A stretch of 32,000 nucleotides of DNA from Desulfotalea psychrophila LSv54 (GCF_000025945.1 NC_006138.1:2340001-2372000), one strand, 5' to 3'; shown: positions 5,744-23,388, counted from the stretch's first letter. Notes: generated from the sequence alone by a model not told the origin. Numbers and translations are program-made.

Positions 5744-5873
5744 CGGGAACCTGGTTGCCAGATTAACTATAAATACCAAGTGACACTATTGAATAGCGGC
5801 TGGTTAGCTCAGCCGTCATGTTTCGAGACAGTAGTGTCCCAAGATGAAAAACCTGCCTGCTTCAGGAGTGAAA

Positions 5874-7619: not shown

Positions 7620-8059
7620 GGAATCGCTTATAACTTTTAGGGCGTGACTTGCCCTGTAATTACCCTGCTTTTCTTTTTGACAGGATCTGAACCAGTGAAA
7701 ATATAAAAAATCTCACTAAAGAATATCAGAGAGTTGAATGGCGTCAAAAAACAAGCAGAGAAGAAAAAGACTCAACATAATTACTGTGACTGGTGACACC
7801 AAAACGTTGAAATAATTGTATACCATCTCTTTCTTTGGTTCTGGCATGGCAACAGTAAAAGCACCCTGTCGATTTTCCCAAAAGTACTGAGCTGCATGTT
7901 ATCGGCACATTTATAGAGTGAGAATTTTACGAAACAATAGATTGGCATCACGACCCAAATCTTCAGCAGACAATCCGGTTAGCTTCTTGGCAATATAAAA
8001 AATATACCCCTTTTAAAAGGTCTGGTTTTGATCTTGTCCGATTGTTTTTTAAGGTTACT

Positions 8060-8088
8060 CCCCGTGCACCGCGGCGCGGTGCACGGGG
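8060..8088 (-). terminator. GC-rich hairpin immediately 3' of giant gene A
   Basis: ccccgtgcaccgc-ggc-gcggtgcacgggg forms a 13-bp perfect stem 17 nt past the stop. No U-tract follows on the minus strand (a T-run precedes it on the plus strand), so it is not canonical. The element is conserved after copy B. Confidence 0.35.
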
Positions 8089-8104
8089 CCTGCCCCTATT
8101 TCTA

Positions 8105-11100
8105 TCAGAACCGGAATTCGAGTTTCGCGGAACCGCCGTAATCGTAGCTGTTCGTCGACAAGGCGGTCTGGGCCCGTATTGACAGCGAAAGGTTGTCCTG
8201 TAGCTGCGCATCGAAGCCCACGGTTAAATCGCCCTGGCAACGGTCGGTGCCCATTGTGAAGTTCAGCTCTCCGAGCGAAGCATCCGCGTCCACCAGCGTC
8301 GAACTCGCGTCCATGCTCGGTTCGTTTAATACTACCGTGAGACCCGCTCGGATGAAGGCCAGCATGGAGTGGTCATTGACCGAGAAGGCCCGACCAAGCT
8401 CGATCATTGGGGTCATGGCGAGCCAGCCATCGCTGACCGACCCGACGTCCCAATTCAGGAGGCCGTTGCCGCTTTCGGTAAAACTGTTCTGCCAGACCTG
8501 TGTGTAGGCCAATGCGGCTGAGGGCTTGGTGTAGTAGCCACTTTGGCCTAAGAACACAGCCGATGCCCGGACCTCGGCTCCGAGGAAGCCTCCGTCTATG
8601 TCGGAATCGGCTTGTTGCCAAATCTGGGAGGACTTGTAGGCCCGATCGTAGTTGAGTGAATAGATCCCACCGGTCAGTGCTGTGGAGAGGGTGAATCTCC
8701 CGATCTCCTTCTTAAGAGCCAAGCCCAGCGAATAGCGCTTGCCATCCTGAGAAAAGTTGTCGCCGTCGATGGACAGCGTCTCGAATTGGCCCACTATCTC
8801 AATAAAGGTGTCGGCTGCGATCTCACGTTGCGAGCCGAGTGCGATACCCCAGGTGGTCTCGGAGAACTCAGGACTTTCTCCAGTGGCATTCTGGTTTAAA
8901 TGCGAGCCGATTGCCTGGACCCAGGCACAGTCGTTCTGGCGCAGGAAGTCGGTGCCGGTCGTCGGGTCGAGTGTCGGACAGCTCTGCATTAGCTGGTTTA
9001 GCCTGTGCGATGCCGAGACCGCTCTGGTCGCCCCGATCAGGCTCTCTTCCGGGGTATGGCTACCGTAGATTGCCGCTAGTTCGTCGGCACTGGTAGTGTT
9101 CAGAATCGTGGTCGCGTGCATGGATAAGGCTTCTTTCGTGTCGCCGCTCGCCGTGGCCTCAATTGCCGCCATGGCGCTGCTTAAATATCTGGCATAACTG
9201 AGCGCATTGTTCCCTAGTTCTATTCCCGCTGCGCTGCCAGTATAGTCGATCGTGTAATTGACGAAGATATCGCTGGTCTTGTTGCTGAGGGTGTAGGTGA
9301 CGGTCGGGGTGTTGACTAATGTCGCGGTCATTGTCTTGAGGTTAGCGTCATTCGTCAGCGAAACGATGTGCAGTACGCCGGTGTTGCCGCTGGAAAGGGT
9401 GGTGCTTCCAACCCAAACGGGTTGGATCACGCCGGTCAGGTTGATCTGCGCGCCCTGGGCAAGACCATCAAAAACGATCTGGTCATTTAATACAGTCCCA
9501 GTCGAGTTTTGTTGGACATCGATCCAGAGTGTCCCGGCCTCGGCGTAGGTTTCACCGAGGCTCACCGTGCTTGTGCCGACTATGTTCTGGCCATAGGGAG
9601 ACATGGTGCTGCCGTCATAGCCTGTGTAGTTACCGAGCTTGCCAAGATAGACGGTCTTGCCGGCGTGGAAGTACGCGCCCTGTAGGTTTTCGAACTCAGT
9701 CCGGTTAGAGTCGTCGAGTTGCAGCGAGCCCGCGAGGATGCCTCCGCTCAAATTGTGGATCCTGAGCGCACCCTGAAAATCGTTAGCAATGACCACTGAG
9801 TTCGCATCGGCGCTCTGGATCGTGCCCTCGTTCTGGATCATGTTGGAATAGCTGAGCGACCCGTCGGAATTATAGCTTGACCGCCCCCCTGAGATAACTA
9901 TCGTCTCGTAGGCCGAACTGTGCGTCGTTTCGACCAGCCCGCCCTTATTGACATAGATGTGACTGGTGCCCCGGCATTCGTCGTCTTTGCACTGGGCGGA
10001 ACCGCCGCCTTTGTCGCCCTGCGGATCGTCTGTGCCGGTTTCCGAGGATTGGGCGAGGATCGCACGGGCGTTCTCGCCCTCGGCTTTTACTGTGCCGGCG
10101 ATACGCATCTTGACCCCACCGGAGTAGCCATCGGTGCCCGAAGCGCTCTGCGCGAAGATCCCGTGCGAGCCGGTGCCCTTGACATTAATTAAGCCGTCAA
10201 TGGCTATGTCGACATAGCCACTGTTGCCGGCGTCTCCGGCGCTACCGATGCTTGCGCTGTCCGTGTCGCTTCCAAGATTGCCACCGGCACCGCCGCTACC
10301 GCCGACGGACTGCACCCAGATCCCGTGGGCGTTTTTATTTGCCGTGTGAATCTGGCCGGTACTCGTGATGTTAACATCGCCCCCGTCGCCACCCTGGCCA
10401 CCGTTGTCCTTACCGAAAATCTGGGCCCCCAGGGTTTCATAGAAATTGGCCACACCGGTTACGATGCTACTTTCGATATCACCAGCTGATCCACCGCCGC
10501 CACCGACCGATTGGGCATAAATACCCATGGCTCCAGAGCCTTCGGTACTGATGTTGCCGCTGTTGGTGACGGCCACATTACCGCCGTTGCCACCCCCAGA
10601 TCCCGACCGTGCGACGGTGATAGAAGTCAGAAGCCCCTGGCTCCCGTCGCCACCACTGCCGCCGCCACCGCCCACGGATTGCGCGAAGATCGCCGTGCCA
10701 CTGTCACCGGTTGTGCTCAGCGTGGCATCGTTCTCGACCGTGACGTTGCCGCCGGTGCCAGAGGCCCCAGCCTGGCCGCCGATATCGATTTCAAAGGAGA
10801 GTTCGTCTTTGGGGAAGCCCTTCACGCCCTTGTAGGTTTCATAGATGTCGTGCAAAAAATCAAAGGTTTTTTTGATATCTGCGACCCAGCCCTTAAGCCC
10901 GGGCGAGCCGTTACCGGAGTTGCCGCCACCACCGCCAACCGACTGGGCGTAGATCGCGTAGGAGGCGTTGCCGGCCGTCGATATCGTACCCTCGGAGTGG
11001 GTCACCGACACGTCGTTGCCGTCCCCCGAGGCGCCAGAGTTGCCGCCCATGGCGTATTTCAGAGAATAGCTTTTACCTTCGTCGGTCTTTTTCTGTTTAT

Positions 11101-14100
11101 TGGTGTAGCCAAAGGTATGGGACCCGGCTTGGCCGCCGTCGCCACCACCGCCGCCGACCGACTGGGCATAGATGCCATAGGAGGTCTCGGTCCGCGTGGA
11201 GATGTCTCCGTTGTTTTGCACAGTCACCGAGCCGGCATCCTCTCCGTTGCCGCCCGAACCGCCCAGCGCCACGTCTACGCTGAAGCTGGGGTTCTTGTTT
11301 TTGGGCGCCAAGTAAAAGTTGAGCGCGCTGGCGGAACCGTAGGCACCAACGCCGCCGTTGCCGCCGACTGACTGCGCGTAGATACCATGGGCGTTACCGC
11401 CCGATGTTTTGAGCGTGGCCTGATTCTCGACCGTCACAGAGCTACCAACCGACCCATTACCGCCGGAGCCGCCGATCGAAACGGTGGTCTGAAACGTCGG
11501 CCCGGAACTACCCGATACAGTGTAGGCATAGCTGCCGCCACCCTTGCCGCCGTTGCCGCCGATCGATTGCGCGAAGATCCCGTAGGACAGGTGTCCGTTC
11601 GTGGTGATATCGCCACCGCTGTTGTTGGTCACTGTGACCGCCTTCGCCGTGCCCGAGTCGCCGCCATCGCCGCCAACGGAGACGTTGACTGAACCGCCAC
11701 CCTCGGAGCTCAAATCGATCGCCGCTGCAATGATGGCACCGCCGTCGCCGCCGTTGCCGCCAATCGACTGGGCGGTAATCCCCGTGGATTGATAGCCGCC
11801 GGTGGTGATCTGGCCTGAATTGGTGATGTCGACCGTATCTGCAGTGCTACCCGCACCGCCGCTACCGCCAACGGAGACGTTGACCGAGGTTGAGATCAGC
11901 CCGGCGCTTCCGGCCCCGGTGCCCAAGAATCCACCTACGCCGCCGCTCCCGCCCAGGGACTGGGCAAAGACCCCGTGCGAGCTGTCGCCCGATGTGTTAA
12001 TATTTTTGGTGTTGGTCAGCGTCACCTTGCCGGCTGTGCCGCCGTCTCCGCCGTTTCCGCCGTGGGCGATGCTGAGATCGCCCATGATGCTAAATGAGCC
12101 TGAGGCCGTCACGCCCCCGGAGCCACCGCCTCCGCCCATACTCTGGGCCAGGATGCCGGTCGCACCTGAGCCAGCGGTGGTGACGGACGCGTTGTTGGTC
12201 AGCGTTATATCCGAGGCCATTCCGCCTAGACCGCCGTTGCCCCCGTGGGTATAGCCGAGGCTGATACCGGCATCGCCATTGACTGTGGTGCCGGATGTGC
12301 CACCACCGCCGGCCACGCTCTGGGCCATGACGCCGGTCGAGAGATGGCCGTGTGTCGTCACGCTGCCGGCGGTGGTCAGATCCACCGTTCCCGACGAGCC
12401 GCCCGTACCACCGGATGAGCCGAGCGCGATCGACCCGGAACTGATCGAGACGTCTCCGCCGAAGGTGTAACCCGCTTTGCCGCCACCGCCGCCGATGGAC
12501 TGGGCGACGACGCCAAGTGCATTGTCGCCCTTGGTCTCGACCGTACTGTCAGTTTGAACCCAGACCGCTCCGGCAGAGCCGGCAGTTCCTGCAGATGATC
12601 CCTGATTGCCAACGAACTGGCTGAATTCCCCTCCGACATTGGCGTCGATAACGTTGCTCGACTGGCCACCGCCGCCACCGATCGACTGCACCAGGATGCC
12701 GTCTGCGTGGTCGCCATCGGTCGTGGCATCGGTCTTGGAGTTTACCGTGACGTTGCCACCGGTCCCGCCGTACTGACCGTCCGCCCCCATGTCATGATTG
12801 AATTCAAGGGTGCTGCCTGCCTCGATGTTATTACCAGCCGAACCGCCGCCACCCCCGACCGACTGGACAAGGAGGGCCGAAGATGTGGCTCCGTGCGTGG
12901 TCACCGATCCGGTCAGGCCAACGGTATCCTTGGCGCCGACATTGACGGTTCCGCCGTGATGCGCTGTGATCGTGTTCGAGGCGGCGGTCTGTTGGTTGAA
13001 GGTCAGGCCGATGTCGACGTTGACCACGTTGCCGCCGGTGCCGCCGCCACCGCCGATGGACTGCGCGACGAAGCCGTTAGACTTGAAAGCGAAGGTTTCG
13101 ATGTCGACGCTGCCGCCTTCGCTGGTGACTGTGATGTCGCCGCCTGAACCGCCATCGCCGCCCTGGGAGCCGAGGATAGGCTTGATGATATCGAGGGCGG
13201 CAAGGGAGCTACCGCCATGGCCACCACCGCCGCCAATGGATGAAATCAGTACCCCGTCTGCGATTTTATCCTGCGTTGTGACCCCGAGCGTTCCACTCTT
13301 GAGATCAAAGGTCACATCGGAGCCACTGCCACCATCGCCACCTTTGGCTCCGAGGGCCCAGGGCCCTTTGGGCGAGGTCGACTTGCCGCCGCCGTCGCCG
13401 ATACTCGAGATCATCACACCAACAGCATATTCGCCCTCGGTCGTGATGGTGGTGTTGCCGTCGGCGGAGAAGGCGGCCTTGCCGCCATTGCCGCCTTTTC
13501 CTCCATCACCGCCAAGGGCGACCACGCCGTCGTTCCCGCCGCTGGTGCCGCCGCCTCCGCCAGCGCTCAGCACGAAGATTCCTGACGCGTCGTCGCCCTT
13601 GGTGGTGATGGTGTTGGTGTCCGTCAGCGTGACGGTGACGTTACCGCCCACGCCACCTGCACCTGCTTTGGCACCGATGGCGATAAAGCCGTCATCCTTC
13701 GAGCCGACACCGCCGCCACCGCCCACCGAGAGTGCGCTTAGTCCATTAGAATAGTTCCCTGTCGTATCCACAGACACGGCATTAAGGGTCGCCGTAACGG
13801 TACGGCCATCACCAGCACTCCCGCCGTTGGCGCCATAGCCGACAAAGCCGGTCGCGCCGCCGGCGTTACCAGCGAAACCGCCGACACTCTCCACGAGGAT
13901 GCCCCCGGCTTCATCGCCTTTCGTCCTAATGGTTCCATTCGCGTAGCTGACCGTGGCCTCGCCACCCGGTCCCGGCACGCTGGCAAAACCAGCGTTGCCG
14001 TCGACCCAGCTATCGGCGTTGCCACCGTTGCCGCTGGCGCCGCCGATACTCTGGATGAAGACGCCTTGCGCCTGGACGCCCGAGGTCGTGATGTCGCCGG

Positions 14101-15103
14101 CGAAAGTCACATCGATCTCTCCAGCAGTGCCGCCGGGGCCGCCATTGCCTCCAACCCCTTTGGTCGGTCCATGCCCTTCGCCGCCGGTCCCTCCGTCCCC
14201 AGCCTCGCTGATGGCAACGATGCCATGTATGGTATCACCCGAGGTCGAGATAGTGTTCGAACTGCTGGCAGCGGTGAGCGTGATAATCCCGCCGTTGCCG
14301 CCGGCACCACCGGTGCCGCCCGTGGCCTTGTTGTCCGAAAGCCCTTCCCCTGCGGTGCTCCCGTTTCCGCCGACGCTAACCAGGGCGATACCGGCGCTGG
14401 TGCTCGTGGTGATATCGACTGAATGCTGATCGTCGAGCGTCACGGTGATAGCGCCGCCATTGCCACCGGCACCGCCGTTGCCGCCGAAGCCCTGATGCAA
14501 CCCGCTCTGGTTGGTGCCCTTGCCGCCTTCGCCGCCCTGGCCACCCTGGCTGAGCACGATAAGACCTGGGCCGCCACTCGTGGTGATTGGGAAAGGGGTC
14601 ACCCCGCCGTTGTCAGCATTGGCTGTGATCGTCACGGCGCTGCCATTACCGCCGGCGCCGCCGATTCCGCCGCGGGCAGTACCAAATGCGCTGTTCTCGT
14701 TAGCCAACCCGCCGTTGCCGCCGTTGCCCTCGATCGAGATCCCGCCCGTGGCGCTGTCGATGCCAAAGCCCTTGTCGAAATGCATCATCAAGGACATATC
14801 GTACGAGCTGTAGGCATCCCCCCCGTCCTGGCCATCTTCATGCTTTTCTTTGGTCGCGTCGTTTCCCGGGCCCGCTTGGTCCGTAAACTTGAACGCATAG
14901 TTGTCGTCACTTGACAGGGAAGGCCCGAAATTACCTGTCACGTTTTCGTACAGGAAGTGGGTGGCAGTGCTTGACCCCACATCGAGGACCGGGATATCGC
15001 TGCCGGAGCAGGTATAGGTGCCATTATCATTGAGACATGATCCAATAGATAAAGTTGGCAACATAAAAATAGATACCATCGAAAAAATGTGCGTCATTCT
15101 CAT
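8105..15103 (-). CDS. Giant type Va autotransporter, copy A (2332 aa): signal peptide, glycine-rich repeat passenger, linker, C-terminal beta-barrel
   Basis: Uninterrupted 7-kb ORF. SD AAGGGG lies 5 nt before the ATG. N-terminus MRMTHIFSMVSIFMLPTLSIGSC. About 26 repeats carry an xAQS[IV]GGGGGxGG core. The last 276 aa (NDCAWVQAIGSH...YDYGGSAKLEFRF) show alternating-hydrophobic beta strands and the terminal aromatic Phe typical of autotransporter barrels. Confidence 0.9.
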   Translation of the reverse strand: MRMTHIFSMVSIFMLPTLSIGSCLNDNGTYTCSGSDIPVLDVGSSTATHFLYENVTGNFGPSLSSDDNYAFKFTDQAGPGNDATKEKHEDGQDGGDAYSSYDMSLMMHFDKGFGIDSATGGISIEGNGGNGGLANENSAFGTARGGIGGAGGNGSAVTITANADNGGVTPFPITTSGGPGLIVLSQGGQGGEGGKGTNQSGLHQGFGGNGGAGGNGGAITVTLDDQHSVDITTSTSAGIALVSVGGNGSTAGEGLSDNKATGGTGGAGGNGGIITLTAASSSNTISTSGDTIHGIVAISEAGDGGTGGEGHGPTKGVGGNGGPGGTAGEIDVTFAGDITTSGVQAQGVFIQSIGGASGNGGNADSWVDGNAGFASVPGPGGEATVSYANGTIRTKGDEAGGILVESVGGFAGNAGGATGFVGYGANGGSAGDGRTVTATLNAVSVDTTGNYSNGLSALSVGGGGGVGSKDDGFIAIGAKAGAGGVGGNVTVTLTDTNTITTKGDDASGIFVLSAGGGGGTSGGNDGVVALGGDGGKGGNGGKAAFSADGNTTITTEGEYAVGVMISSIGDGGGKSTSPKGPWALGAKGGDGGSGSDVTFDLKSGTLGVTTQDKIADGVLISSIGGGGGHGGSSLAALDIIKPILGSQGGDGGSGGDITVTSEGGSVDIETFAFKSNGFVAQSIGGGGGTGGNVVNVDIGLTFNQQTAASNTITAHHGGTVNVGAKDTVGLTGSVTTHGATSSALLVQSVGGGGGSAGNNIEAGSTLEFNHDMGADGQYGGTGGNVTVNSKTDATTDGDHADGILVQSIGGGGGQSSNVIDANVGGEFSQFVGNQGSSAGTAGSAGAVWVQTDSTVETKGDNALGVVAQSIGGGGGKAGYTFGGDVSISSGSIALGSSGGTGGSSGTVDLTTAGSVTTHGHLSTGVMAQSVAGGGGTSGTTVNGDAGISLGYTHGGNGGLGGMASDITLTNNASVTTAGSGATGILAQSMGGGGGSGGVTASGSFSIMGDLSIAHGGNGGDGGTAGKVTLTNTKNINTSGDSSHGVFAQSLGGSGGVGGFLGTGAGSAGLISTSVNVSVGGSGGAGSTADTVDITNSGQITTGGYQSTGITAQSIGGNGGDGGAIIAAAIDLSSEGGGSVNVSVGGDGGDSGTAKAVTVTNNSGGDITTNGHLSYGIFAQSIGGNGGKGGGSYAYTVSGSSGPTFQTTVSIGGSGGNGSVGSSVTVENQATLKTSGGNAHGIYAQSVGGNGGVGAYGSASALNFYLAPKNKNPSFSVDVALGGSGGNGEDAGSVTVQNNGDISTRTETSYGIYAQSVGGGGGDGGQAGSHTFGYTNKQKKTDEGKSYSLKYAMGGNSGASGDGNDVSVTHSEGTISTAGNASYAIYAQSVGGGGGNSGNGSPGLKGWVADIKKTFDFLHDIYETYKGVKGFPKDELSFEIDIGGQAGASGTGGNVTVENDATLSTTGDSGTAIFAQSVGGGGGSGGDGSQGLLTSITVARSGSGGGNGGNVAVTNSGNISTEGSGAMGIYAQSVGGGGGSAGDIESSIVTGVANFYETLGAQIFGKDNGGQGGDGGDVNITSTGQIHTANKNAHGIWVQSVGGSGGAGGNLGSDTDSASIGSAGDAGNSGYVDIAIDGLINVKGTGSHGIFAQSASGTDGYSGGVKMRIAGTVKAEGENARAILAQSSETGTDDPQGDKGGGSAQCKDDECRGTSHIYVNKGGLVETTHSSAYETIVISGGRSSYNSDGSLSYSNMIQNEGTIQSADANSVVIANDFQGALRIHNLSGGILAGSLQLDDSNRTEFENLQGAYFHAGKTVYLGKLGNYTGYDGSTMSPYGQNIVGTSTVSLGETYAEAGTLWIDVQQNSTGTVLNDQIVFDGLAQGAQINLTGVIQPVWVGSTTLSSGNTGVLHIVSLTNDANLKTMTATLVNTPTVTYTLSNKTSDIFVNYTIDYTGSAAGIELGNNALSYARYLSSAMAAIEATASGDTKEALSMHATTILNTTSADELAAIYGSHTPEESLIGATRAVSASHRLNQLMQSCPTLDPTTGTDFLRQNDCAWVQAIGSHLNQNATGESPEFSETTWGIALGSQREIAADTFIEIVGQFETLSIDGDNFSQDGKRYSLGLALKKEIGRFTLSTALTGGIYSLNYDRAYKSSQIWQQADSDIDGGFLGAEVRASAVFLGQSGYYTKPSAALAYTQVWQNSFTESGNGLLNWDVGSVSDGWLAMTPMIELGRAFSVNDHSMLAFIRAGLTVVLNEPSMDASSTLVDADASLGELNFTMGTDRCQGDLTVGFDAQLQDNLSLSIRAQTALSTNSYDYGGSAKLEFRF
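8108..8935 (-). other. Segment encoding the autotransporter beta-barrel translocator domain of copy A
   Basis: 276 C-terminal residues ending in EFRF. The preceding CPTLDPTTGTDFLRQNDC linker is followed by amphipathic strands (RYSLGLALKKEI, FTLSTALTGGIYSLNY, LTVGFDAQL, LSLSIRAQTAL). Confidence 0.8.
10040..14750 (-). repeat. Coding array of about 26 degenerate 58-95-aa glycine-rich passenger repeats (copy A)
   Basis: The recurring unit is G-x-V-T-V-x-N-x-G-x-I-x-T-x-G-x-x-S/A-x-G-I-x-A-Q-S-[IV]-G-G-G/N-G-G-x-G-G, then a variable insert, then V-x-V-x-x-G-G-x-G-G-x-G. Counted by eye: 14 AQS cores, 4 [IV]QS cores and about 8 degenerate cores. Boundaries are approximate. Confidence 0.8.
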
Positions 15104-15148
15104 AGTAACCCCTTAACATAAAATCTAGAATTGAACTTTCCAGTATAG

Positions 15149-15178
15149 CTTATAGGGCTCTGTTGCAAAAAATGTCAA
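15149..15178 (-). promoter_or_regulatory. Candidate hybrid sigma70 promoter for copy A: -35 inside the IS remnant, -10 in flanking DNA
   Basis: The minus strand reads aaTTGACAttttttgcaacagagcccTATAAGctatactgg. TTGACA is at 15178..15173, then an 18-nt spacer, then TATAAG at 15154..15149, about 45 nt upstream of the ATG at 15103. An alternative is TTGCAA (15163-15168) - 15 nt - TATACT. Confidence 0.35.
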
Positions 15179-15511
15179 TTTGTCAAAGACCCCTTATAGA
15201 AGACATATTTTATGCTGCAGAATAGATATCAAATTGTCTTTAAATTAGGCGGATCTCTCCTTGCAAACCTTGATCATGGGGCCATATATCGAATTGGCCT
15301 TTTTTAAACATTCTCATGACTTCAAAACCCCTCTCCACCATCATCTCTTCCAAATCACGATAACTAATTCCGTATTTACAGTACCAGCGTACACAAGCCA
15401 AAATTATCTCACCACGAAAATGCTTCCATTTGAAATCATTCATAACGCCTTCTATTGCTTGATGACATACAATGATTTCACAGCATATTTAGATTTTTTG
15501 CAACAGAGCCC
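15155..15511 (-). mobile_element. Internally deleted, non-autonomous IS6/IS26-family insertion sequence (357 bp)
   Basis: Perfect 19-bp terminal inverted repeats: gggctctgttgcaaaaaat (15155-15173) and attttttgcaacagagccc (15493-15511). The core GGCTCTGTTGCAAA matches the IS26 IR GGCACTGTTGCAAA at 13 of 14 positions. The element encloses the truncated transposase ORF. The flanking 8-mers differ, so there is no TSD. Confidence 0.8.
15240..15443 (-). pseudogene. IS6-family transposase remnant: in-frame fusion of the N-terminal 42 aa to the C-terminal ~25 aa
   Basis: MNDFKWKHFRGEIILACVRWYCKYGISYRDLEEMMVERGFEV aligns with the IS26 Tnp N-terminus MNPFKGRHFQRDIILWAVRWYCKYGISYRELQEMLAERGVNV. The tail MRMFKKGQFDIWPHDQGLQGEIRLI aligns with the IS26 C-terminus MRALRKGQASAFYYGDPLGEMRLV. 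The entire DDE catalytic core is missing. Confidence 0.75.
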
Positions 15512-15820
15512 AGAAGATTCTGTAAGTCCCTTTAACGGTGGTCAAAAAGTTCTTGCTGGAGTAAAAGAGGAAGAGTCATTCCTACATTTAATACCATTCA
15601 GTACTGGAAAAATTTAATGGCTTGTAAAGAAATAACAGAAACTAGAAGTGAGTCACATGATGTAAGCATTTACAATAATAGCTGTGAAGATTCGAATAAC
15701 ATAGTTCAATTAGTGAAAATTAATGGTGGTGGTCATGTCATACCTAATCCTTACTTTTCAGAGTGGGCAAAAGATCTTGGGAAGGTCAATAAATATTTTT
15801 TTTACCAAAGTTTAATTTAG
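15512..15820 (+). pseudogene. 5'-truncated, frameshifted fragment of a PHB-depolymerase-family (LpqC-like) esterase
   Basis: Frame 0 reads DSVSPFNGG. Frame 2, open from 15536, reads IQYWKNLMACKEITE...SCEDSNNIVQLVKINGGGHVIP. These resemble the D..vPf.GG, s...W...n.C and e.GGHtWP blocks of that esterase family. There is no N-terminal half, the IS inverted repeat abuts the 5' side, and a frame switch lies around 15570-15590. Confidence 0.45.
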
Positions 15821-15996
15821 ATTTCTTTGAATCACTTAAATAATATTTATGTTTGAGATTCTTCTTATCAACGATAAAGCTGAAAGTTTATTCAAATCTT
15901 CAGCACACAATCCGGTTAGCTTCTTGGCAATGTAAAAAATATACCCCTTTTAAAAGGTCTGGTTTTGATCTTGTCCGATTGTTTTTTTAGGTTACT

Positions 15997-16025
15997 CTCC
16001 GTGCACCGCGGCGCGGTGCACGGGG
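15997..16025 (-). terminator. GC-rich hairpin 3' of giant gene B (paralogue of 8060-8088)
   Basis: ctccgtgcaccgc-ggc-gcggtgcacgggg is the same element as after copy A. One outer pair is changed to a G.U wobble. Confidence 0.35.
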
Positions 16026-16041
16026 CCTGCCCCTATTTCTA

Positions 16042-19000
16042 TCAGAACCGGAATTCGAGTTTCGCGGAACCGCCGTAATCGTAGCTGTTCGTCGACAAGG
16101 CGGTCTGGGCCCGTATTGACAGCGAAAGGTTGTCCTGTAGCTGCGCATCGAAGCCCACGGTTAAATCGCCCTGGCAACGGTCGGTGCCCATTGTGAAGTT
16201 CAGTTCTCCGAGCGAAGCATCCGCGTCCACCAGCGTCGAACTCGCGTCCATGCTCGGTTTGTTTAATACCACCGTGAGACCCGCCCGGATGAAGGCCAGC
16301 ATGGAGTGGTCATTGCCCGAGAAGGCCCGACCAAGCTCGATCATTGGGGTCATGGCGAGCCAGCCATCGCTGACCGACCCGACGTCCCAATTCAGGAGGC
16401 CGTTGCCGCTTTCGGTAAAACTGTCCTGCCAGACCTGTGTGTAGGCCAATGCGGCTGAGGGCTTGGCGTAGTAGCCACTTTGGCCTAAGAACACAGCCGA
16501 TGCCCGGACCTCGGCTCCGAGGAAGCCTCCGTCTATGTCGGAATTGGCTTGTTGCCAAATCTGGGAGGACTTGTAGGCCCGATCGTAGTTGAGTGAATAG
16601 ATCCCACCGGTCAGTGCTGTGGAGAGGGTGAACCTCCCGATCTCTTTCTTAAGAGCCAAGCCCAGCGAATAGCGCTCGCCATCCTGAGAAAAGTTGTCGC
16701 CGTCGATGGACAGCGTCTCGAATTGGCCCACTATCTCAATAAAGGTGTCGGCTGCGATCTCACGTTGCGAGCCGAGTGCGATACCCCAGGTGGTCTCGGA
16801 GAACTCAGGACTTTCTCCAGTGGCATTCTGGTTTAAATGCGAGCCGATTGCCTGGACCCAGGCACAGTCGTTCTGGCGCAGGAAGTCGGTGCCGGTCGTC
16901 GGGTCGAGTGTCGGACAGCTCTGCATTAGCTGGTTTAGCCTGTGCGATGCCGAGACCGCTCTGGTCGCCCCGATCAGGCTCTCTTCCGGGGTATGGCTAC
17001 CGTAGATTGCCGCTAGTTCGTCGGCACTGGTAGTGTTCAGAATCGTGGTCGCGTGCATGGATAAGGCTTCTTCCGTGTCGCCGCTCGCCGTGGCCTCAAT
17101 TGCCGCTAGTTTGTCGGCACTGGTAGTGTTTAGAATTGTGGTCGCGTGCATGGAGGCTTCTTCCGTGTTGCCGCTCGCCGTGGCCTCAATTGCCGCCATG
17201 GCGCTGCTTAAATATCTGGCATAACTGAGCGCATTGTTCCCTAGTTCTATTCCCGCTGCGCTGCCAGTATAGTCGATCGTGTAATTGACGAAGATATCGC
17301 TGGTCTTGTTGCTGAGGGTGTAGGTGACGGTCGGGGTGTTGACTAATGTCGCGGTCATTGTCTTGAGGTTAGCGTCATTCGTCAGCGAAACGATGTGCAG
17401 TACGCCGGTGTTGCCGCTGGAAAGGGTGGTGCTTCCAACCCAAACGGGTTGGATCACGCCGGTCAGGTTGATCTGCGCGCCCTGGGCAAGACCATCAAAA
17501 ACGATCTGGTCATTTAATACAGTCCCAGTCGAGTTTTGTTGGACATCGATCCAGAGTGTCCCGGCCTCGGCGTAGGTTTCACCGAGGCTCACCGTGCTTG
17601 TGCCGACTATGTTCTGGCCATAGGGCGACATGGTGCTGCCGTCGTAGCCTGTGTAGTTACCGAGCTTGCCAAGATAGACGGTCTTGCCGGCGTGGAAGTA
17701 CGCGGCCTGTAGGTTTTCGAACTCAGTCCGGTTGGAGTCGTCGAGTTGCAGCGAGCCCGAGAGGATGCCTCCGTTCCAATTGTGGATCCTGAGCGCCCCT
17801 TGAGAATCGTTAGCAATGACCACTGAGTCCGCGTTGGCGCTCTGGATTGTGCCCTCGTTCTGGATCATGTTGGAATAGCTGAGCGACCCGTCGGAATTAT
17901 AGTTTGACCGCCCCCCTGAGATAGCGATCGTCTCGTAGGCCGAACTGTTCGTCGTCTCGACCAGTCCGCCTTTATTGACATAGATGTGACTGGTGCCCCG
18001 GCATTCGGCGTCTTTGCACTGGGTGGAACCGCTGCTTTCGCTGCCCTGCGGATCGTCTGTGCCAATTTCCGAGGATTGGGCGAGGATCGCCCGGGCGTTC
18101 GCGCCCTCGGTTTTTACTGTGCCGGCGATACGCATCTTGACCCCACCGGAGTAGCCATCGGTGCCCGAAGCGCTCTGCGCGAAGATCCCGTGCGAGCCGG
18201 TGCCCTTGACATTAATCAAGCCGTCAATGGCTATGTCGACATAGCCACTGTTGCCGGCGTCTCCGGCGCTACCGATGCTTACGCTGTCCGTTTTGCTGCC
18301 AAGATTGCCACCGGCACCGCCGCTACCGCCGACGGACTGCACCCAGATCCCGTGGGCGTTTTCATTTGCCGTGTTAATCTGGCCGGTACTCGTGATGTTA
18401 ACATCGCCCCCGTCGCCACCCTGGCCACCGTTGTCCTTACCGAAAATCTGGGCCCCCATGGTTTCATAGAAATTGGCCACAGCGGTTACGATGCTACTTT
18501 CGATGTCACCGGCCGATCCACCGCCGCCACCGACCGATTGGGCATAAATACCCATGGCTCCGGAGCCTCCGGTACTGATATTGCCGCTGTTGGTGACGGC
18601 CACATTACCGCCGTTGCCGCCCCCAGATCCCGACCGTGCGACGGTGATAGAAGTCAGAAGCCCCTGACTCCCGTCGCCGCCACTGCCGCCGCCGCCGCCC
18701 ACGGATTGCGCGAAGATCGCCGTGCCGCTGTCGCCGGTTGTGGTCAGCGTGGCATCGTTTTCGACCGTGACGTTGCCGCCGGTGCCAGAGGCCCCAGCCT
18801 GGCCGCCGATGTCGATTTCAAAGGAGAGTTCGTCTTTGGGGAAGCCCTTCACGTCCTTGTAGGTGTCATAGAGGTCGTCCAGAAACTCGCCGGTATTCTT
18901 GATATCCGCGACCCAGCCCTTAAGCCCGGGCGAGCCGTTGCCGGAGTTGCCGCCACCACCGCCAACCGACTGGGCGTAGATCGCGTAGGAGGCGTTGCCG

Positions 19001-22000
19001 ACCGTCGAGATGGTGCCCGCCGAATGGGTTACCGACACGTCGTTGCCGTCACCAGAGACGCCTTGGTCGCCGCCCATGGTAAAGTTCAGAGAATAGCTTT
19101 TACCTTCGTCGGTCTTGGTCTGTTTCTTGGTGTAGCCAAAGGTATGGGACCCGGCTTGGCCGCCGTCCCCACCGCCGCCACCGACCGACTGGGCGTAGAT
19201 GCCGTAAGCGGTCTCGGTCTGCGTGGAGATGTCTCCGTTGTTTTGCACAGTTACCGAGCCGGCATCCTCCCCGCTGCCGCCTGAACCGCCCAGCGCCACG
19301 TTCGCGTTAACGTCGAGGTTATTGTCACCGGGCTTGTAGAAGAAGTCTCCCGCGAAGGCGAAGCCGTAGGCGCCGACGCCGCCGTTGCCGCCGACCGACT
19401 GCGCATAGATGCCATGGGAGTTGCCGCCCGATGTCTTGAGCGTGGCGTCATTCTCGACCGTCACAGAGCTGCCAACCGACCCGCTGCCGCCGTTGCCGCC
19501 GATCGAAACGGAGGCATCTACCGTCGGCCCGGTACTCCCCGACAGTGTGAAGGCGTAGCTGCCGCCACCCTTGCCGCCGTTGCCGCCGATCGATTGCGCG
19601 AAGATCCCGTAGGACAGATGTCCGGACGTTGTGATGTCGCCACCGCTGTTGTTGGTCACTGTGACCGCTTTCGCCGTGCCCGAGTCGCCGCCATCGCCGC
19701 CAACGGAGACGTTGACTGAACCACTACCGTCGGAGCTCAAATCGATCGCCCCTGCAATGATGGCACCGCCGTCGCCGCCGTTGCCGCCAACCGACTGGGC
19801 GGTAATCCCCGTGGAGTGATAGCCAGCGGTGGTGATTTGGCCCGAGTTGGTGATGTCGACCGTATCTGCAGTGCTACCCTTGCCGCCGCTACCGCCAACG
19901 GAGACGTTGACCGAGGCCGAGATCGGCCCGGCGCTTCCGGCTCCGGTACCCAGAAATCCGCCTACGCCGCCGCTCCCGCCCAGAGACTGGGCAAAGACCC
20001 CGTGCGAGCTGTCGCCCGACGTTTTAATATTTTCGGTGTTGGTCAGCGTCACCTTGCCGGCTGTGCCGCCGTTGCCGCCGTCTCCGCCGTGGGCGATGTT
20101 GAGATCACCCACGATGCCAAATGACGCTGAGGCCGTCACGCCCCCGGAGCCACCGCCCCCGCCCATACTCTGGGCCAGGACGCCGGTCGCACCCGAGCCA
20201 GCGGTGGTGACGGACGCGTTATTGATCAGCGTTATATCCGAGGCCATTCCGCCTAGACCGCCGTTGCCCCCATGGGTATAGCTGAGGCTGATACCGGCAT
20301 TGCCATTGACTGTGGTGCCAGCCGTGCCACCACCGCCGGCCACACTCTGGGCCATGACGCCGGTCGAGAGATTGCCGGATGTCGTCACGCTACCGGCGGT
20401 GGTCAGCTCCACCGTTCCCGACGAGCCGCCCGCACCACCGGATGAGCCGAGGCTGATACCGGCATTGATCGAGACGTCTCCGTCGACGGTATAACCCGCT
20501 TTGCCGCCACCGCCGCCGATGGACTGGGCGACGACGCCAAGTGCATTGTCGCCCTTGGTCTCGACCGTGCTGTCAGTTTGGACCCAGACCGCTCCGGCAG
20601 AGCCGGCAGTTCCCGCAGATGAACCCTGATTGCCAATGAACTGGCTGATTTCCCCGCCGACATTGGCATCGATAACGTTGCTCGACTGGCCACCGCCGCC
20701 ACCAATCGATTGCACCAGGATGCCGTCTGCGTGGTCGCCATCGGTCGTGGCATCGGTCTTGGAGTTTACCGTGACGTCGCCACCGGTCCCGCCGTCCTGA
20801 CCGCCCGCCCCCATGTCATGATTGAATTCAAGGGTGCTGCCTGCCTCGATGCTATTACCAGCCGAACCGCCGCCACCCCCGACCGACTGGACAAGGAGGG
20901 CCGAAGATGTAGCTCCGTGCGTGGTTACCGATCCGGTCAGGCCAACGGTATCCTTGTTGCCGACGTTGACGGTTCCACCGTGATGCGCTGCGGTCGTGGC
21001 CAAGGCGGCGGTCTGTTGGTTGAAGGTCAGGCCGATGTCGACGTTGACCACGTTGCCGCCGGTGCCGCCGCCACCGCCGATGGACTGCGCGACGAAGCCA
21101 TTAGACTTGAAACCGGAGGTTTCGATGTCGACGCTGCCGCCTTCGCTGGTGACCGTGATGTCGCCGCCTGAACCGCCATCGCCGCCCTGGGAGCCGAGGA
21201 CAGGCTTGATGATATCGAGGGCGGCAAGGGAGCTACCGCCATGGCCACCACCGCCGCCAACGGATGAAATCAGTACCCCGTCTGCGATGCTACCCTGCGT
21301 TGTGACCCCGAGCGTTCCACTCTTGAGATCAAAGGTCACGTCGGAGCCACTGCCGCCATCTCCACCGTTGGCTCCGAGGGCCCAGGGCCCTGTGGGCGAG
21401 GTCGACTTGCCGCCGCCGTTGCCGATACTCGAGATCATCACACCAACAGCATATTCGCCCTCGGTCGTGATGGTGGTGTTGCCGTCGGCGGAGAAGGTGG
21501 CAACATCACCATTGCCGCCTTTCCCTCCAGCACCGCCAAGGGCGACCACGCCTTCGTTCCCGCCGCTGGTGCCGCCGCCTCCGCCAGCGCTCAGCACGAA
21601 GATTCCTGACGCGTCGTCGCCCTTGGTAGTGATGGTGTTGGTGTCCGTCAGCGTGACGGTGACGTTACCGCCCGCGCCACCTGCACCACCTGCGGCACCG
21701 ATGGTGACAAAGCCATCGTCTTTCGAACCGACACCGCCGCCACCGCCCACCGAGAGTGCGCTTAGTCCAATAGAAGAGTTCCCTGTCGTAGCCACAGACA
21801 CGGCATTAAGGGTTGTCGTAACGGTATTGCCATCACCACCACTCGCGCCGTTGGCGCCATAGCCGACAAAGCCGCTCGCGCCGCCGGAGCTACCGGCGAA
21901 ACCGCCGACACTCTCCACGAGGATGGCCGAGGCTTCATCGCCTTTCGTGGTAATAGTTCCATTCGCGTAGCTGATCGTCGCCTCGCCACCCGGTCCCGGC

Positions 22001-23133
22001 ACGCTGGCAAGACCAGAGTCGCTGTCGAACCAGCTATCGCCTTTGCCGCCACTGCCGCTGGCGCCGCCGATACTCTGGATAAAGACGCCTTGCGCCTGGG
22101 CGCCCGAGGTCGTGATGTCGCCGGCGAAAGTCACATTGATCTCTCCAGCAGTGCCGCCGTGTCCGCCAACGCCTCCAACCCCTTCGGCCGTCCCATCCCC
22201 TTCGCCGCCGGTCCCTCCGTCCCCAGCCTCGCTGATAGCAACGATGCCATGTCCCGCATCGCCCGAGGTCGAGATTGCGTTCGAACTGCTGTCAGCGGTG
22301 AGCTCTACAATCCCGCCGTTGCCACCGGCACCACCAGTGCCGCCCGTAGCCTTGTTCGACGAAACCCCTTCACCCGCGGTGTTGCCGTTGCCGGCGACGC
22401 TAACCAGGGCGATACCGCTGCTGGCGCTCGTGGCGATGTCGACTGAATGCTGATCGTCGAGCCTCACGGTGATATCGCCGCCATTGCCACCGGCACCGCC
22501 GTTGCCGCCATTACCCTGATGAACCCCGCCGCTATGGTTGTGGCCCTCGCCGCCTTCGCCGCCGTTACCACCCCGGCTGAGCACGATAATACCTGGGCCG
22601 TTCTTCGCGGTGATTGGGAAAGGGGGCACCCCGCCGTTGTCAGCATTGGCTGTGATCGTCACGACGCTGCCATTACCACCGGCGCCGCCGACCCCGCCAT
22701 AGGCGGTGGTGGAGTATTTCTTGTCCTCATTGGCGTTGCCACCGATGCCGCCGTTGCCTTCGATCGAGATCCCGCCCGTGGCGCTGTCGATGCCAAAGCC
22801 CTTGTCGAAATGCATCATCAAGGACATATCGTACGAACTGTAGCCCTCCCCCCCCGGCTGACCATTCATATGCTTTCCGTCGGTCGCGTCGGTCCCCGGG
22901 CCCGCTTGGTCCGTAAACTTGAACGCATAGTCGCCGTCACTTGACAGGGAAGGCCCGAAATTACCCGTTACGTTTTCGTACAGGAAGTGGGTGGCAGTGC
23001 TTGACCCGACATTGAGGACCGGGATATCGCTGCCGGAGCAGGTATAGGTGCCATTATCATTGAGACATGACCCAATAGATAAAGTTGGCAACATAAAAAT
23101 AGATACCATCGAAAAAATGTGCGTCATTCTCAT
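16042..23133 (-). CDS. Giant type Va autotransporter, copy B (2363 aa), paralogue of copy A
   Basis: Uninterrupted ORF, collinear with copy A. The signal peptide is identical, the barrel differs at 6 of 276 aa, and the passenger is visibly diverged. The SD is weaker (AAGGAA). Confidence 0.9.
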   Translation of the reverse strand: MRMTHIFSMVSIFMLPTLSIGSCLNDNGTYTCSGSDIPVLNVGSSTATHFLYENVTGNFGPSLSSDGDYAFKFTDQAGPGTDATDGKHMNGQPGGEGYSSYDMSLMMHFDKGFGIDSATGGISIEGNGGIGGNANEDKKYSTTAYGGVGGAGGNGSVVTITANADNGGVPPFPITAKNGPGIIVLSRGGNGGEGGEGHNHSGGVHQGNGGNGGAGGNGGDITVRLDDQHSVDIATSASSGIALVSVAGNGNTAGEGVSSNKATGGTGGAGGNGGIVELTADSSSNAISTSGDAGHGIVAISEAGDGGTGGEGDGTAEGVGGVGGHGGTAGEINVTFAGDITTSGAQAQGVFIQSIGGASGSGGKGDSWFDSDSGLASVPGPGGEATISYANGTITTKGDEASAILVESVGGFAGSSGGASGFVGYGANGASGGDGNTVTTTLNAVSVATTGNSSIGLSALSVGGGGGVGSKDDGFVTIGAAGGAGGAGGNVTVTLTDTNTITTKGDDASGIFVLSAGGGGGTSGGNEGVVALGGAGGKGGNGDVATFSADGNTTITTEGEYAVGVMISSIGNGGGKSTSPTGPWALGANGGDGGSGSDVTFDLKSGTLGVTTQGSIADGVLISSVGGGGGHGGSSLAALDIIKPVLGSQGGDGGSGGDITVTSEGGSVDIETSGFKSNGFVAQSIGGGGGTGGNVVNVDIGLTFNQQTAALATTAAHHGGTVNVGNKDTVGLTGSVTTHGATSSALLVQSVGGGGGSAGNSIEAGSTLEFNHDMGAGGQDGGTGGDVTVNSKTDATTDGDHADGILVQSIGGGGGQSSNVIDANVGGEISQFIGNQGSSAGTAGSAGAVWVQTDSTVETKGDNALGVVAQSIGGGGGKAGYTVDGDVSINAGISLGSSGGAGGSSGTVELTTAGSVTTSGNLSTGVMAQSVAGGGGTAGTTVNGNAGISLSYTHGGNGGLGGMASDITLINNASVTTAGSGATGVLAQSMGGGGGSGGVTASASFGIVGDLNIAHGGDGGNGGTAGKVTLTNTENIKTSGDSSHGVFAQSLGGSGGVGGFLGTGAGSAGPISASVNVSVGGSGGKGSTADTVDITNSGQITTAGYHSTGITAQSVGGNGGDGGAIIAGAIDLSSDGSGSVNVSVGGDGGDSGTAKAVTVTNNSGGDITTSGHLSYGIFAQSIGGNGGKGGGSYAFTLSGSTGPTVDASVSIGGNGGSGSVGSSVTVENDATLKTSGGNSHGIYAQSVGGNGGVGAYGFAFAGDFFYKPGDNNLDVNANVALGGSGGSGEDAGSVTVQNNGDISTQTETAYGIYAQSVGGGGGDGGQAGSHTFGYTKKQTKTDEGKSYSLNFTMGGDQGVSGDGNDVSVTHSAGTISTVGNASYAIYAQSVGGGGGNSGNGSPGLKGWVADIKNTGEFLDDLYDTYKDVKGFPKDELSFEIDIGGQAGASGTGGNVTVENDATLTTTGDSGTAIFAQSVGGGGGSGGDGSQGLLTSITVARSGSGGGNGGNVAVTNSGNISTGGSGAMGIYAQSVGGGGGSAGDIESSIVTAVANFYETMGAQIFGKDNGGQGGDGGDVNITSTGQINTANENAHGIWVQSVGGSGGAGGNLGSKTDSVSIGSAGDAGNSGYVDIAIDGLINVKGTGSHGIFAQSASGTDGYSGGVKMRIAGTVKTEGANARAILAQSSEIGTDDPQGSESSGSTQCKDAECRGTSHIYVNKGGLVETTNSSAYETIAISGGRSNYNSDGSLSYSNMIQNEGTIQSANADSVVIANDSQGALRIHNWNGGILSGSLQLDDSNRTEFENLQAAYFHAGKTVYLGKLGNYTGYDGSTMSPYGQNIVGTSTVSLGETYAEAGTLWIDVQQNSTGTVLNDQIVFDGLAQGAQINLTGVIQPVWVGSTTLSSGNTGVLHIVSLTNDANLKTMTATLVNTPTVTYTLSNKTSDIFVNYTIDYTGSAAGIELGNNALSYARYLSSAMAAIEATASGNTEEASMHATTILNTTSADKLAAIEATASGDTEEALSMHATTILNTTSADELAAIYGSHTPEESLIGATRAVSASHRLNQLMQSCPTLDPTTGTDFLRQNDCAWVQAIGSHLNQNATGESPEFSETTWGIALGSQREIAADTFIEIVGQFETLSIDGDNFSQDGERYSLGLALKKEIGRFTLSTALTGGIYSLNYDRAYKSSQIWQQANSDIDGGFLGAEVRASAVFLGQSGYYAKPSAALAYTQVWQDSFTESGNGLLNWDVGSVSDGWLAMTPMIELGRAFSGNDHSMLAFIRAGLTVVLNKPSMDASSTLVDADASLGELNFTMGTDRCQGDLTVGFDAQLQDNLSLSIRAQTALSTNSYDYGGSAKLEFRF
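16045..16872 (-). other. Segment encoding the autotransporter beta-barrel translocator domain of copy B
   Basis: Same 276-aa C-terminal domain as copy A with six substitutions (K/E, D/N, T/A, N/D, V/G, E/K). Confidence 0.8.
17006..17188 (-). repeat. In-frame tandem duplication (93 nt + 90 nt) in the pre-barrel linker of copy B only
   Basis: Unit 1 (17006-17098) and unit 2 (17099-17188) both begin attgccgctagtt and end gccgtggcctca. They encode AAIEATASGNTEEASMHATTILNTTSADKL and AAIEATASGDTEEALSMHATTILNTTSADEL. Copy A has a single unit. Confidence 0.85.
18067..22780 (-). repeat. Coding array of glycine-rich passenger repeats (copy B)
   Basis: Collinear with the copy A array and has the same xAQS[IV]GGGGGxGG cores. 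Boundaries are approximate. Confidence 0.8.
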
Positions 23134-23308
23134 AGTAATTCCTTAAAATAAAATCTAGAATTGAACTTTCCAGTAGGGCCACTAAAGGAATAAGCGTAAA
23201 GTTTGAGGGTAGTGAAGATTTGGTCGTGATGGCAAATGGGGAAAATTTCAATCGTATAATAATGGGGATTATTTTAATAAGTCAGCTCTCTACGATAAAG
23301 TAAATGAG

Positions 23309-23354: not shown

Positions 23355-23372
23355 TCCCCGTTTGCACGGGGA
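23355..23372 (-). terminator. Second small hairpin between the dld stop and the main terminator
   Basis: tccccgt-ttgc-acgggga forms a 7-bp stem. Its function is uncertain. Confidence 0.25.
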
Positions 23373-23388
23373 CACTAGCCTCTGTATG

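Follow-up and report, generated by a model that had tools for sequence, protein, structure and literature searches.

A tandem pair of giant, glycine-rich putative autotransporter genes of probable foreign origin in Desulfotalea psychrophila

Gene organisation and domain architecture

This analysis concerns two very large, glycine-rich genes that lie one behind the other in a 32,000-nt stretch of Desulfotalea psychrophila LSv54, here called the window, with coordinates counted from its first letter. Both are uninterrupted open reading frames (ORFs) on the minus strand; gene A (8105..15103) encodes 2332 amino acids (aa) and gene B (16042..23133) encodes 2363, and both products end in AKLEFRF, just as an initial annotation made from the sequence alone had described. 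Each gene occupies a direct-repeat unit on the same strand (unit A, 7956..15145; unit B, 15893..23175), unit A consisting of a 149-bp 3' flank, gene A and 42 bp upstream of its ATG. A blastn comparison of the two halves of the block returned the unit boundaries that the annotation had drawn. The ratio of nonsynonymous to synonymous divergence (overall dN/dS = 0.48) agrees with its view that both copies are intact. The product of gene B is identical to DP2074 (CAG36803.1, UniProt Q6ALH2), which was an 'unknown protein' in the original genome annotation and carries the UniRef name 'Autotransporter domain-containing protein'. Glycine accounts for 21-22% of all residues; its share is 24-30% across most of the passenger and drops to 9-10% over the final 500 aa.

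The C-terminus is the part of these proteins that can be assigned to a known family. Searches of the full-length proteins against Pfam and NCBIfam gave zero matches, but the last 300 aa scanned alone matched PF03797 with E=2.6e-26 and 93.4 bits (cut-off 26) over profile positions 1-254 of 255, and the isolated C-terminus matched TIGR01414 with 29 bits (cut-off 16). Given the strength of the PF03797 match, the lack of full-length matches was rejected as evidence against an autotransporter. Evidently, the extreme composition suppresses the barrel match in the full-length context, and this effect probably explains why almost every member of the wider family is without a precomputed Pfam domain, which suggests systematic under-annotation of the family by composition filters.

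The AlphaFold2 model of the C-terminal 733 aa (predicted local distance difference test, pLDDT, 91; predicted template modelling score, pTM, 0.84) resolves three parts. A beta-solenoid without the glycine bias (aa ~1631-1952, pLDDT >90; strands at model residues 32-353) forms the C-terminal end of the passenger; the part of it behind the repeats (aa ~1687-1952) corresponds to window 9248..10045, minus strand. It is followed by about four helices (aa 1965-2038) in a segment that, by the model and the alignment of homologues, also carries Cys2042 and an SCPxLDP motif and leads into the barrel (8969..9247, minus strand). The translocator beta-barrel itself (8108..8968, minus strand; strands at aa 2059-2331) ends in the beta-signal ...AKLEFRF. 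The region that the annotation had called a conventional linker of ~370 aa is made of a ~320-aa beta-solenoid and a ~75-aa helical segment. A further helix is predicted at aa 2047-2052, directly before the first barrel strand (pLDDT >90), and together with the preceding helices would provide an alpha-helical linker into the barrel. Foldseek searches with the C-terminal model found the EstA, NalP, EspP, BrkA, Hbp and AIDA-I translocators with E values of 1e-14 to 1e-7; for NalP (1uyo) the target TM (template modelling score) is 0.81. The PF03797 match, the model and these translocators together bear out the autotransporter identity first proposed from the sequence.

The aromatic beta-signal recurs in homologues, which end in ...LRF or ...FRF. 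No TpsB- or Omp85-like gene was found within the window and no conserved partner gene near the homologues, the neighbours in Thiohalocapsa and Stappia being unrelated housekeeping genes. Both proteins accordingly appear to be type Va autotransporters, with the signal peptide, helical linker, barrel, beta-signal and self-contained gene of that class. The conserved Cys pair and the SCPxLDP...C-x-W motif before the first barrel strand (window 8927-8980, aa 2042-2059) form a family signature, and alignment columns C443, P444, C460 and W462 are invariant or nearly so across 54 homologues. In total there are three closely spaced Cys pairs (23/32, 1705/1710 and 2042/2059); closely spaced cysteines are tolerated by the secretion pore.

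The N-terminus begins in gene A with a predicted signal peptide (15038..15103, minus strand; aa 1-22, MRMTHIFSMVSIFMLPTLSIGS/C, the slash marking the cleavage site), in which an n-region MRMTH, an h-region IFSMVSIFMLPTL and a c-region SIG/SC can be recognised by inspection. Homologues with 47-64% identity likewise start with a hydrophobic, signal-like stretch followed by a conserved Cys pair. A lipoprotein signal, with Cys23 following LSIGS, was considered and rejected: the homologues have ARA/AC, AGA/AC and AEA/GC at this position, with no lipobox. They resemble sites of signal peptidase I cleavage in which a Cys stands at +2, and the signal of copy A was therefore treated as an ordinary signal peptide. 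The following segment (14681..15037, minus strand; aa 23-141), with the Cys23/Cys32 pair and a YENVTGNFGP motif, is an N-terminal cap that would be the distal tip of a fibre.

These parts are missing from the current RefSeq proteins. WP_041277900.1 (copy A, 2001 aa) covers only aa 332-2332 from an internal GTG start, and WP_041277904.1 (copy B) has 2030 aa; the starts lie 331 codons (A) and 333 codons (B) late, so that signal peptide, cap and first repeats are lost (window 14110-15103 in A and 22135-23133 in B). The full length is present in the older GenBank entry CAG36803.1. Because the upstream 331 aa, including the two-Cys cap, are conserved in Thiohalocapsa (64% identity over 100% of the query), Chachezhania and Stappia, and because a Shine-Dalgarno sequence (AAGGGG) stands 5 nt upstream of ATG(1) while the internal GTG has none, the RefSeq internal start is almost certainly wrong.

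Glycine-rich repeats and their predicted fold

Between the cap and the C-terminal solenoid lie 26 Gly-rich repeat units (10046..14680, minus strand; aa 142-1686), delimited with a repeat hidden Markov model (HMM) and an AlphaFold2 model of aa 860-1620. The unit consensus is FSVALGGNGGAGGTGGDVTVTNTGTITTKGDNATGILAQSVGGGGGSGGN, and units are mostly spaced 52-72 aa apart, with extremes of 36 and 88. The repeat HMM finds 26 units in each copy, 26 in the Thiohalocapsa homologue, 25 in Chachezhania and 24 in Stappia; because the counts in both copies and in the homologues are so similar, the repeats appear to be old, individually conserved and collinear. The protein repeats have diverged at the DNA level, and Tandem Repeats Finder run on the block did not detect the repeat structure of the passenger in the DNA. 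Glycine autocorrelation peaks at a lag of 3 (0.27) and is negative at a lag of 9. Copy A contains 22 GGxGGxGG and 32 GGxGGxG motifs, x being mostly N, S, A, D, G or K, and the two GGx segments of each repeat hold the triplet periodicity over at least 9 residues.

In the passenger model (pLDDT 80, pTM 0.80; repeat cores >95, inserted loops <50) the units follow a strict period of ~60 residues. Each is predicted to start with a 10-residue strand, GIxAQSV, followed by a 9-residue non-strand GGxGGxGG segment and a variable hairpin arm of 10-45 residues; a second Gly segment, GGxGGxG, of 9-12 residues then leads to the strands VxVxN-xG-xIxT. The predicted strands are Thr-rich (VTVTN, ITT), and DSSP assigns the GGx segments neither to strand nor to helix.

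Searches with the passenger returned little. Foldseek found no match to the model at E ≤ 0.001 in PDB or BFVD (best E values 0.11 and 0.011, respectively), and Pfam and NCBIfam scans of segments from passenger and linker, run at E ≤ 10, gave nothing meaningful, the matches to DUF2268 (E 0.14) and BACON_2 (E 0.03) being dismissed as noise. A PDB sequence search with the passenger and the C-terminal module returned only the engineered GGSGG linkers of mini-G proteins, plus noise. The statement that the passenger has no function that can be named is therefore upheld, in that no family model or solved structure matches it.

Two readings of the fold have to be weighed. There is something close to an even chance that the passenger is an ordinary right-handed parallel beta-helix of the pertactin or IcsA kind with Gly-rich turns, the Foldseek miss being a technical effect of the length and low complexity of the fibre. 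Its VxVxNxGxIxT strands are similar to motifs common in the beta-helices of autotransporters, the Gly-rich repeats of IcsA align in register to a 20-aa sub-motif, and weak structural matches of the passenger model are to beta-helix proteins such as Fap2, tailspikes and Vag8. The passenger of IcsA, including its Gly-rich region, has also been predicted to be beta-helical in an AlphaFold model (PMC9769942). On the other hand, no match reached significance even though the PDB holds many autotransporter beta-helices, the predicted strands of 10-20 residues, split by GGx segments of 9-12 residues, differ from the 3-6-residue strands of pertactin-type rungs, the repeat HMM scores IcsA negatively, and no PATR or other autotransporter-repeat model matched. 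A novel fold, in which long beta-hairpins alternate with matched, polyglycine-II-like GGx segments of 9-12 residues, and which would recur in ~2000 clusters, is a tentative proposal that we regard as rather doubtful. If true, it would belong to giant type V proteins (2300-7200 aa) of mostly marine and soil Proteobacteria that compositional filters have kept hidden, and its conserved scaffold with hypervariable arms would amount to a new modular platform for surface display.

The repeat is widespread whichever fold it adopts. An exhaustive phmmer search with a 761-aa repeat segment gave 2034 representative clusters at E ≤ 1e-3, of which 955 reach E ≤ 1e-30, the largest protein among the matches having 7216 aa. 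Of 15 sampled members, ten have a C-terminal barrel that an HMM of this subfamily recognises and another two have an aromatic beta-signal at their end; the others seem to be truncated. Because most sampled members end in one or the other, the repeat is in essence a module of type V passengers. Most of the named members come from Alpha- and Gammaproteobacteria, with marine examples such as Stappia, Labrenzia, Marinibacterium and Thiohalocapsa.

Foreign composition, probable insertion and duplication

The two genes differ from their surroundings in composition. Their G+C (GC) content is 61%, against 45% in the flanks; in a sliding window the genes range from 56 to 65%, the flanks from 37 to 50%, and the spacer between the genes lies at 34%. 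The GC-rich island noted at the outset is hence correct for the genes, but an AT-rich spacer divides them and the block is not uniform. Third-position GC (GC3) is 0.72 in passenger, C-terminal solenoid and barrel alike and 0.47 in flanking genes. Codon choice is shifted to CGG, TCG, ACG, GCG and ATC, the first four of which are typical of high-GC genomes. Tetranucleotide usage correlates at 0.89 between the two flanks, at -0.13 to -0.21 between the autotransporter genes and the flanks, and at 0.81-0.83 between the autotransporter genes and the genome around the Thiohalocapsa homologue. In Thiohalocapsa and Stappia the homologous genes have a GC content of 65-66% in surroundings of 63-64%.

Could the genes nevertheless be native, with their high GC content a result of Gly and Ala codons or of translational selection? 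Gly and Ala together account for ~31% of residues and have codons that are GC-rich at positions 1 and 2. However, GC3 stays at 0.72 once the Gly codons are removed, the barrel has the same value with only 9% Gly, the tetranucleotide profile correlates negatively with that of the flanks, the genes are missing from this locus in relatives, and the phylogeny is incongruent with that of the host, so that a native origin is hardly credible. The claim that the block is compositionally foreign beyond its Gly codons thus stands, barrel and linker being as GC3-rich as the passenger.

The phylogeny points in the same direction as the composition. The nearest homologues belong to Chromatiaceae (64-66% identity) and Rhodobacteraceae (52-59%), and no Desulfobacterota other than D. 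psychrophila occur among the named entries of the best 120 matches. A neighbour-joining tree built on the C-terminal module pairs the two copies as sisters and places them within a clade of Chromatiaceae, which is in turn embedded among Rhodobacteraceae sequences. The gene is probably foreign and derived from a proteobacterial lineage of high GC content.

The pair lies between an HD-GYP gene (5844-7619) and a convergent gene for a Dld-like oxidase with flavin adenine dinucleotide (FAD) and Fe-S centres (dld, 23389-26220). With the Dld-like neighbour as query and one genome taken per species, 31 loci were collected, mostly from Desulfocapsaceae, and no autotransporter homologue lay within 10 kb of dld in any of them; comparison of synteny at the HD-GYP/dld junction, which had been put forward as a check, thus shows relatives without the genes. 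In a Desulforhopalus metagenome-assembled genome dld and HD-GYP converge on an intergenic stretch of 586 bp that contains no ORF. DNA homology with the six closest relatives compared stops at 23355-23399, at or just past the end of dld. The Dld-like oxidase shares 85-93% identity with the corresponding proteins of the closest relatives, and the best HD-GYP match there reaches only 43%; the two flanks of the insertion therefore differ strongly in evolutionary rate or history. The 586-bp Desulforhopalus intergenic region (4033-4618) contains two long inverted-repeat pairs, for example GGAGAGCATGCAAAACC...GGTTTTGCATGCTCTCC, and the dld/HD-GYP junction may be a recurrent landing site for small mobile elements.

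At the edges of the insertion, a ~50-bp imperfect inverted repeat brackets the whole 15.3-kb block. Its left arm (7911..7965) was found by local alignment with the reverse complement of the right arm (23213..23259), and its 20-nt core is unique in the window and was matched in 0 of 100 shuffles. The inner 10 bp of the left arm (7956-7965) are the first 10 bp of the duplicated unit. No target-site duplication was found around the repeat. Its arms could be the termini of a mobile element that is no longer active, or the two parts of a host palindrome into which the block was inserted. A scan of the block found no Rfam element.

The two units have diverged in a mosaic fashion. By blastn, 7956-9169 and 15893-17106 are 98.7% identical, and 9069-15145 and 17099-23175 are 92.6% identical with 429 mismatches and 18 gap openings. 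Overall dN between the copies is 0.053 and dS 0.110; dS is 0.05-0.26 over the first ~1800 codons and at most 0.04 in the last ~560. The 149-bp 3' flank is as similar as these last codons (~99% identical), a pattern that points to conversion of the 3' ends. In the part of the passenger that was modelled, the paralogues differ by 24% in the variable arms, 14% in the second Gly segment, 8% and 4% in the core strands and 1% in the first Gly segment, and the barrel differs at 2%; the scaffold is conserved and the exposed arms diverge. Copy B also carries an in-frame 30-aa tandem duplication (AAIEATASGNTEEASMHATTILNTTSADKL; 17107..17196, minus strand) in its helical segment that is absent from A, and three single-codon indels separate the copies further. 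The Thiohalocapsa homologue, too, has a longer insert in the helical segment between passenger and barrel, which therefore tolerates changes in length.

These differences bear on whether there are two copies at all. Large near-identical repeats are a classic source of mis-assembly, and the 3' 1.2 kb of the units are the 98.7% identical part. The mismatches and gap openings over 6 kb, the 30-aa and single-codon indels, the distinct flanks, the unique 747-bp spacer and the presence of both proteins as separate database entries from one contig make an assembly artefact a practically negligible prospect. The copies are true paralogues and, with ~7% of positions different, indels and different flanks, cannot collapse into one, an outcome that the initial annotation had named as refuting it.

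That the copies were acquired independently, or imported as a ready-made pair, instead of being duplicated in Desulfotalea is unlikely but deserves mention. Passenger dS reaches 0.2-0.26 in some windows, the sequences upstream of the shared 42-bp leader are unrelated, and the units do not meet head to tail in a clean join but are separated by an IS6 remnant and AT-rich DNA of unrelated sequence. Against this, the unit boundaries coincide to the base in both copies, the shared 149-bp 3' flank is AT-rich and host-like, and the copies are by far closest to each other (90% identical, against 64% to the next homologue). The position of the inner 10 bp of the bracketing inverted repeat within the duplicated unit further suggests that duplication followed insertion.

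The spacer itself has two parts. A miniature IS6-family insertion sequence (IS) remnant of 357 bp (15155..15511, minus strand) retains both terminal inverted repeats (GGGCTCTGTTGCAAAAAATG...; 15155-15182 and 15484-15511, 28 nt, 89% complementary) and an internally deleted IS6 transposase ORF (15240..15443, minus strand; NF033587, E=2.4e-12 on aa 4-43). No target-site duplication was found at the remnant. The IS remnant reported by the initial annotation is present, then, but sits between the copies and not at the edge of the block. The remaining 381 bp (15512..15892, ~34% GC) are AT-rich filler to which family scans assigned no origin. A 67-aa ORF on the plus strand (15617..15820; ...VKINGGGHVIPNPYF...) has weak matches to BAAT_C (E 0.076) and BB_PF, all with E > 0.03, and the region may be a gene fragment that came along with the IS.

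Only 42 bp upstream of each ATG are duplicated, and the two genes must therefore use different promoters. The sole nearby minus-strand candidate for gene A is a promoter-like site at 15142..15169 (minus strand) that matches only 9 of 12 consensus positions; its -35 box TTTGCA lies inside the left IS6 inverted repeat, and its -10 box TATACT, 16 nt away, straddles the repeat boundary. An IS-derived hybrid promoter for gene A is thus possible. At the other end of the gene, a GC-rich perfect hairpin read from the sequence (CCCCGTGCACCGCG/GCGCGGTGCACGGGG; 8060..8088, minus strand) lies 17 nt past the stop, and a second copy follows gene B (~15997-16025). Both hairpins are terminator-like but have no U-tract, and a terminator scan gave no call there.

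Proposed function and comparison with known type V systems

We consider it probable that the block is a horizontally acquired, then tandemly duplicated pair of type Va autotransporter genes, likely coding for a surface fibre or adhesin. The export steps can be drawn from knowledge of the family. The protein would leave the cytoplasm through Sec by its N-terminal signal peptide, the C-terminal beta-barrel would enter the outer membrane with help from the Bam complex, and the ~2000-aa passenger would be threaded out from C- to N-terminus, its folding presumably nucleated by the barrel-adjacent solenoid without Gly bias. The passenger would then fold into a long fibre of 26 Gly-rich units projecting from the cell, with the variable hairpin arms and the N-terminal cap as the interacting surface. 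On the genetic side, the gene would have come from proteobacteria of high GC content, inserted between HD-GYP and dld, which converge, and been duplicated, after which gene conversion would keep the translocator ends near-identical while the exposed arms of the paralogues diverge.

The most likely role is non-enzymatic, as a surface fibre or adhesin that makes contact with other cells, with particles or within biofilms, because the proteins have no recognisable catalytic domain, combine a conserved scaffold with variable arms and keep a conserved number of repeats. Many large repeat passengers of type V proteins are adhesins. One could instead envisage a physical role in the cold or at surfaces, such as binding of ice or mineral by flat Thr/Gly faces, or a protective coat. 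The host is a psychrophile, as its species name and general knowledge indicate, the strands are Thr-rich, and GGxGGxGG triplets are a signature of the polyproline II (PPII) bundles of springtail antifreeze proteins, two chains of which (7jjv) rank second and third among the structural matches of the passenger model. Those matches are not significant, however, and the family is dominated by marine Alpha- and Gammaproteobacteria, marine members being mostly mesophiles. Such a role is very unlikely.

Several points weigh against the acquired and duplicated adhesin pair as we propose it. The adhesin role was reached by exclusion, no catalytic domain having been found. Foreignness was judged against 16 kb of flanks. 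No tRNA gene was found next to the block in the scans and no integrase-like product among the ORFs examined, and the Desulforhopalus HD-GYP that defines the empty site is only 43% identical, so its orthology is uncertain. The barrel-adjacent solenoid sits at the position expected of an autochaperone, yet neither PF18883 nor any other family model matches it, and PF12951 and TIGR04393 gave no match either when segments were scanned separately against Pfam and NCBIfam. The literature searched does not mention DP2074 or its neighbours as bacterial genes.

The locus would be a clean and well-bounded case of transfer of a 7-kb surface-protein gene between phyla into a Desulfobacterota genome. Transfer, duplication in tandem, conversion between the export modules and divergence of the exposed arms would together offer a small model of how surface repertoires evolve. 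The analysis also exposes a problem of annotation: the RefSeq starts are late, and full-length HMM scans miss the barrel, which leaves the family systematically under-annotated. What is known of type V secretion itself is unchanged by these genes. The repeat marks out a large and uncharacterised family of giant autotransporters for which neither a structure nor a function is on record.

Among known systems, the classical autotransporters with solved translocators (NalP, EspP, EstA, BrkA, Hbp and AIDA-I) are the closest in architecture. Like them, the Desulfotalea proteins would join signal peptide, passenger, helical linker and PF03797 barrel in one polypeptide with an aromatic beta-signal and no partner gene, and the barrel model superposes on theirs. 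The passenger, in contrast, is 3-4 times longer than most of theirs, is 24-30% Gly and consists of 26 units of ~60 aa without a match to any family model. In place of one linker helix there are about four ahead of the barrel, together ~75 aa and of varying length, and the barrel entrance has the conserved Cys pair and SCPxLDP motif.

The closest experimentally studied analogue of the repeat is the Gly-rich region of Shigella IcsA/VirG (aa 117-307; PMC9769942), which also belongs to a type Va passenger and in which an h-x-h-x-N-x-G-x-h strand comes after GGxGG motifs. Five of its repeats can be aligned in register, but only on the sub-motif GGNGGDxxxGxxhxhxNxGxh. The IcsA units are, however, ~33 aa long, number about six and have one Gly motif each, with no GIxAQS(V/I)GGGGG strand-loop. 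A repeat HMM made from copy A's 21 best units gave only negative domain scores on IcsA (WP_001071795.1), its Gly-rich region falling within the range of the shuffled controls inspected, and classification as an IcsA-type passenger was rejected. IcsA recruits N-WASP inside host cells, a function that has no bearing on a free-living bacterium of sediments.

Fap2 of Fusobacterium nucleatum (PDB 9qe7) is likewise a giant type Va protein, an adhesin with a very long, repetitive, rod-like passenger. It is the top-ranked Foldseek match for the passenger model, although not a significant one (E 0.11, TM 0.07, 11% identity), and has no sequence similarity to the Desulfotalea passenger. The PPII or polyglycine-II bundles of springtail and snow-flea antifreeze proteins share the GGx triplet periodicity, but the two 7jjv chains matched with E values of only 0.12 and 0.27 (probability 0.04 and 0.51), and here the GGx segments are predicted to lie between long beta-strands in a 2000-aa fibre instead of forming a small all-PPII bundle. 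A literature search on Desulfotalea autotransporters and on polyglycine or polyproline II in autotransporters gave nothing relevant.

With the RTX beta-roll (GGxGxDxUx) the passenger has in common that it is a Gly/Asp/Asn-rich secreted repeat, and copy A contains 10 scattered GGxGxD motifs. An RTX assignment was rejected, as there are no tandem nonapeptides, no 9-residue periodicity and no match to an RTX model; export, moreover, would be by type V and not type I. The term 'glycine-rich' in PMC2275737 is used for RTX motifs only. PATR repeats (PF12951/TIGR04393) were excluded as well, with no match at E ≤ 10 when the passenger segments were scanned separately. The genes themselves are already in the databases as autotransporters, and it is the undescribed family of passenger repeats that is their only potentially new element.

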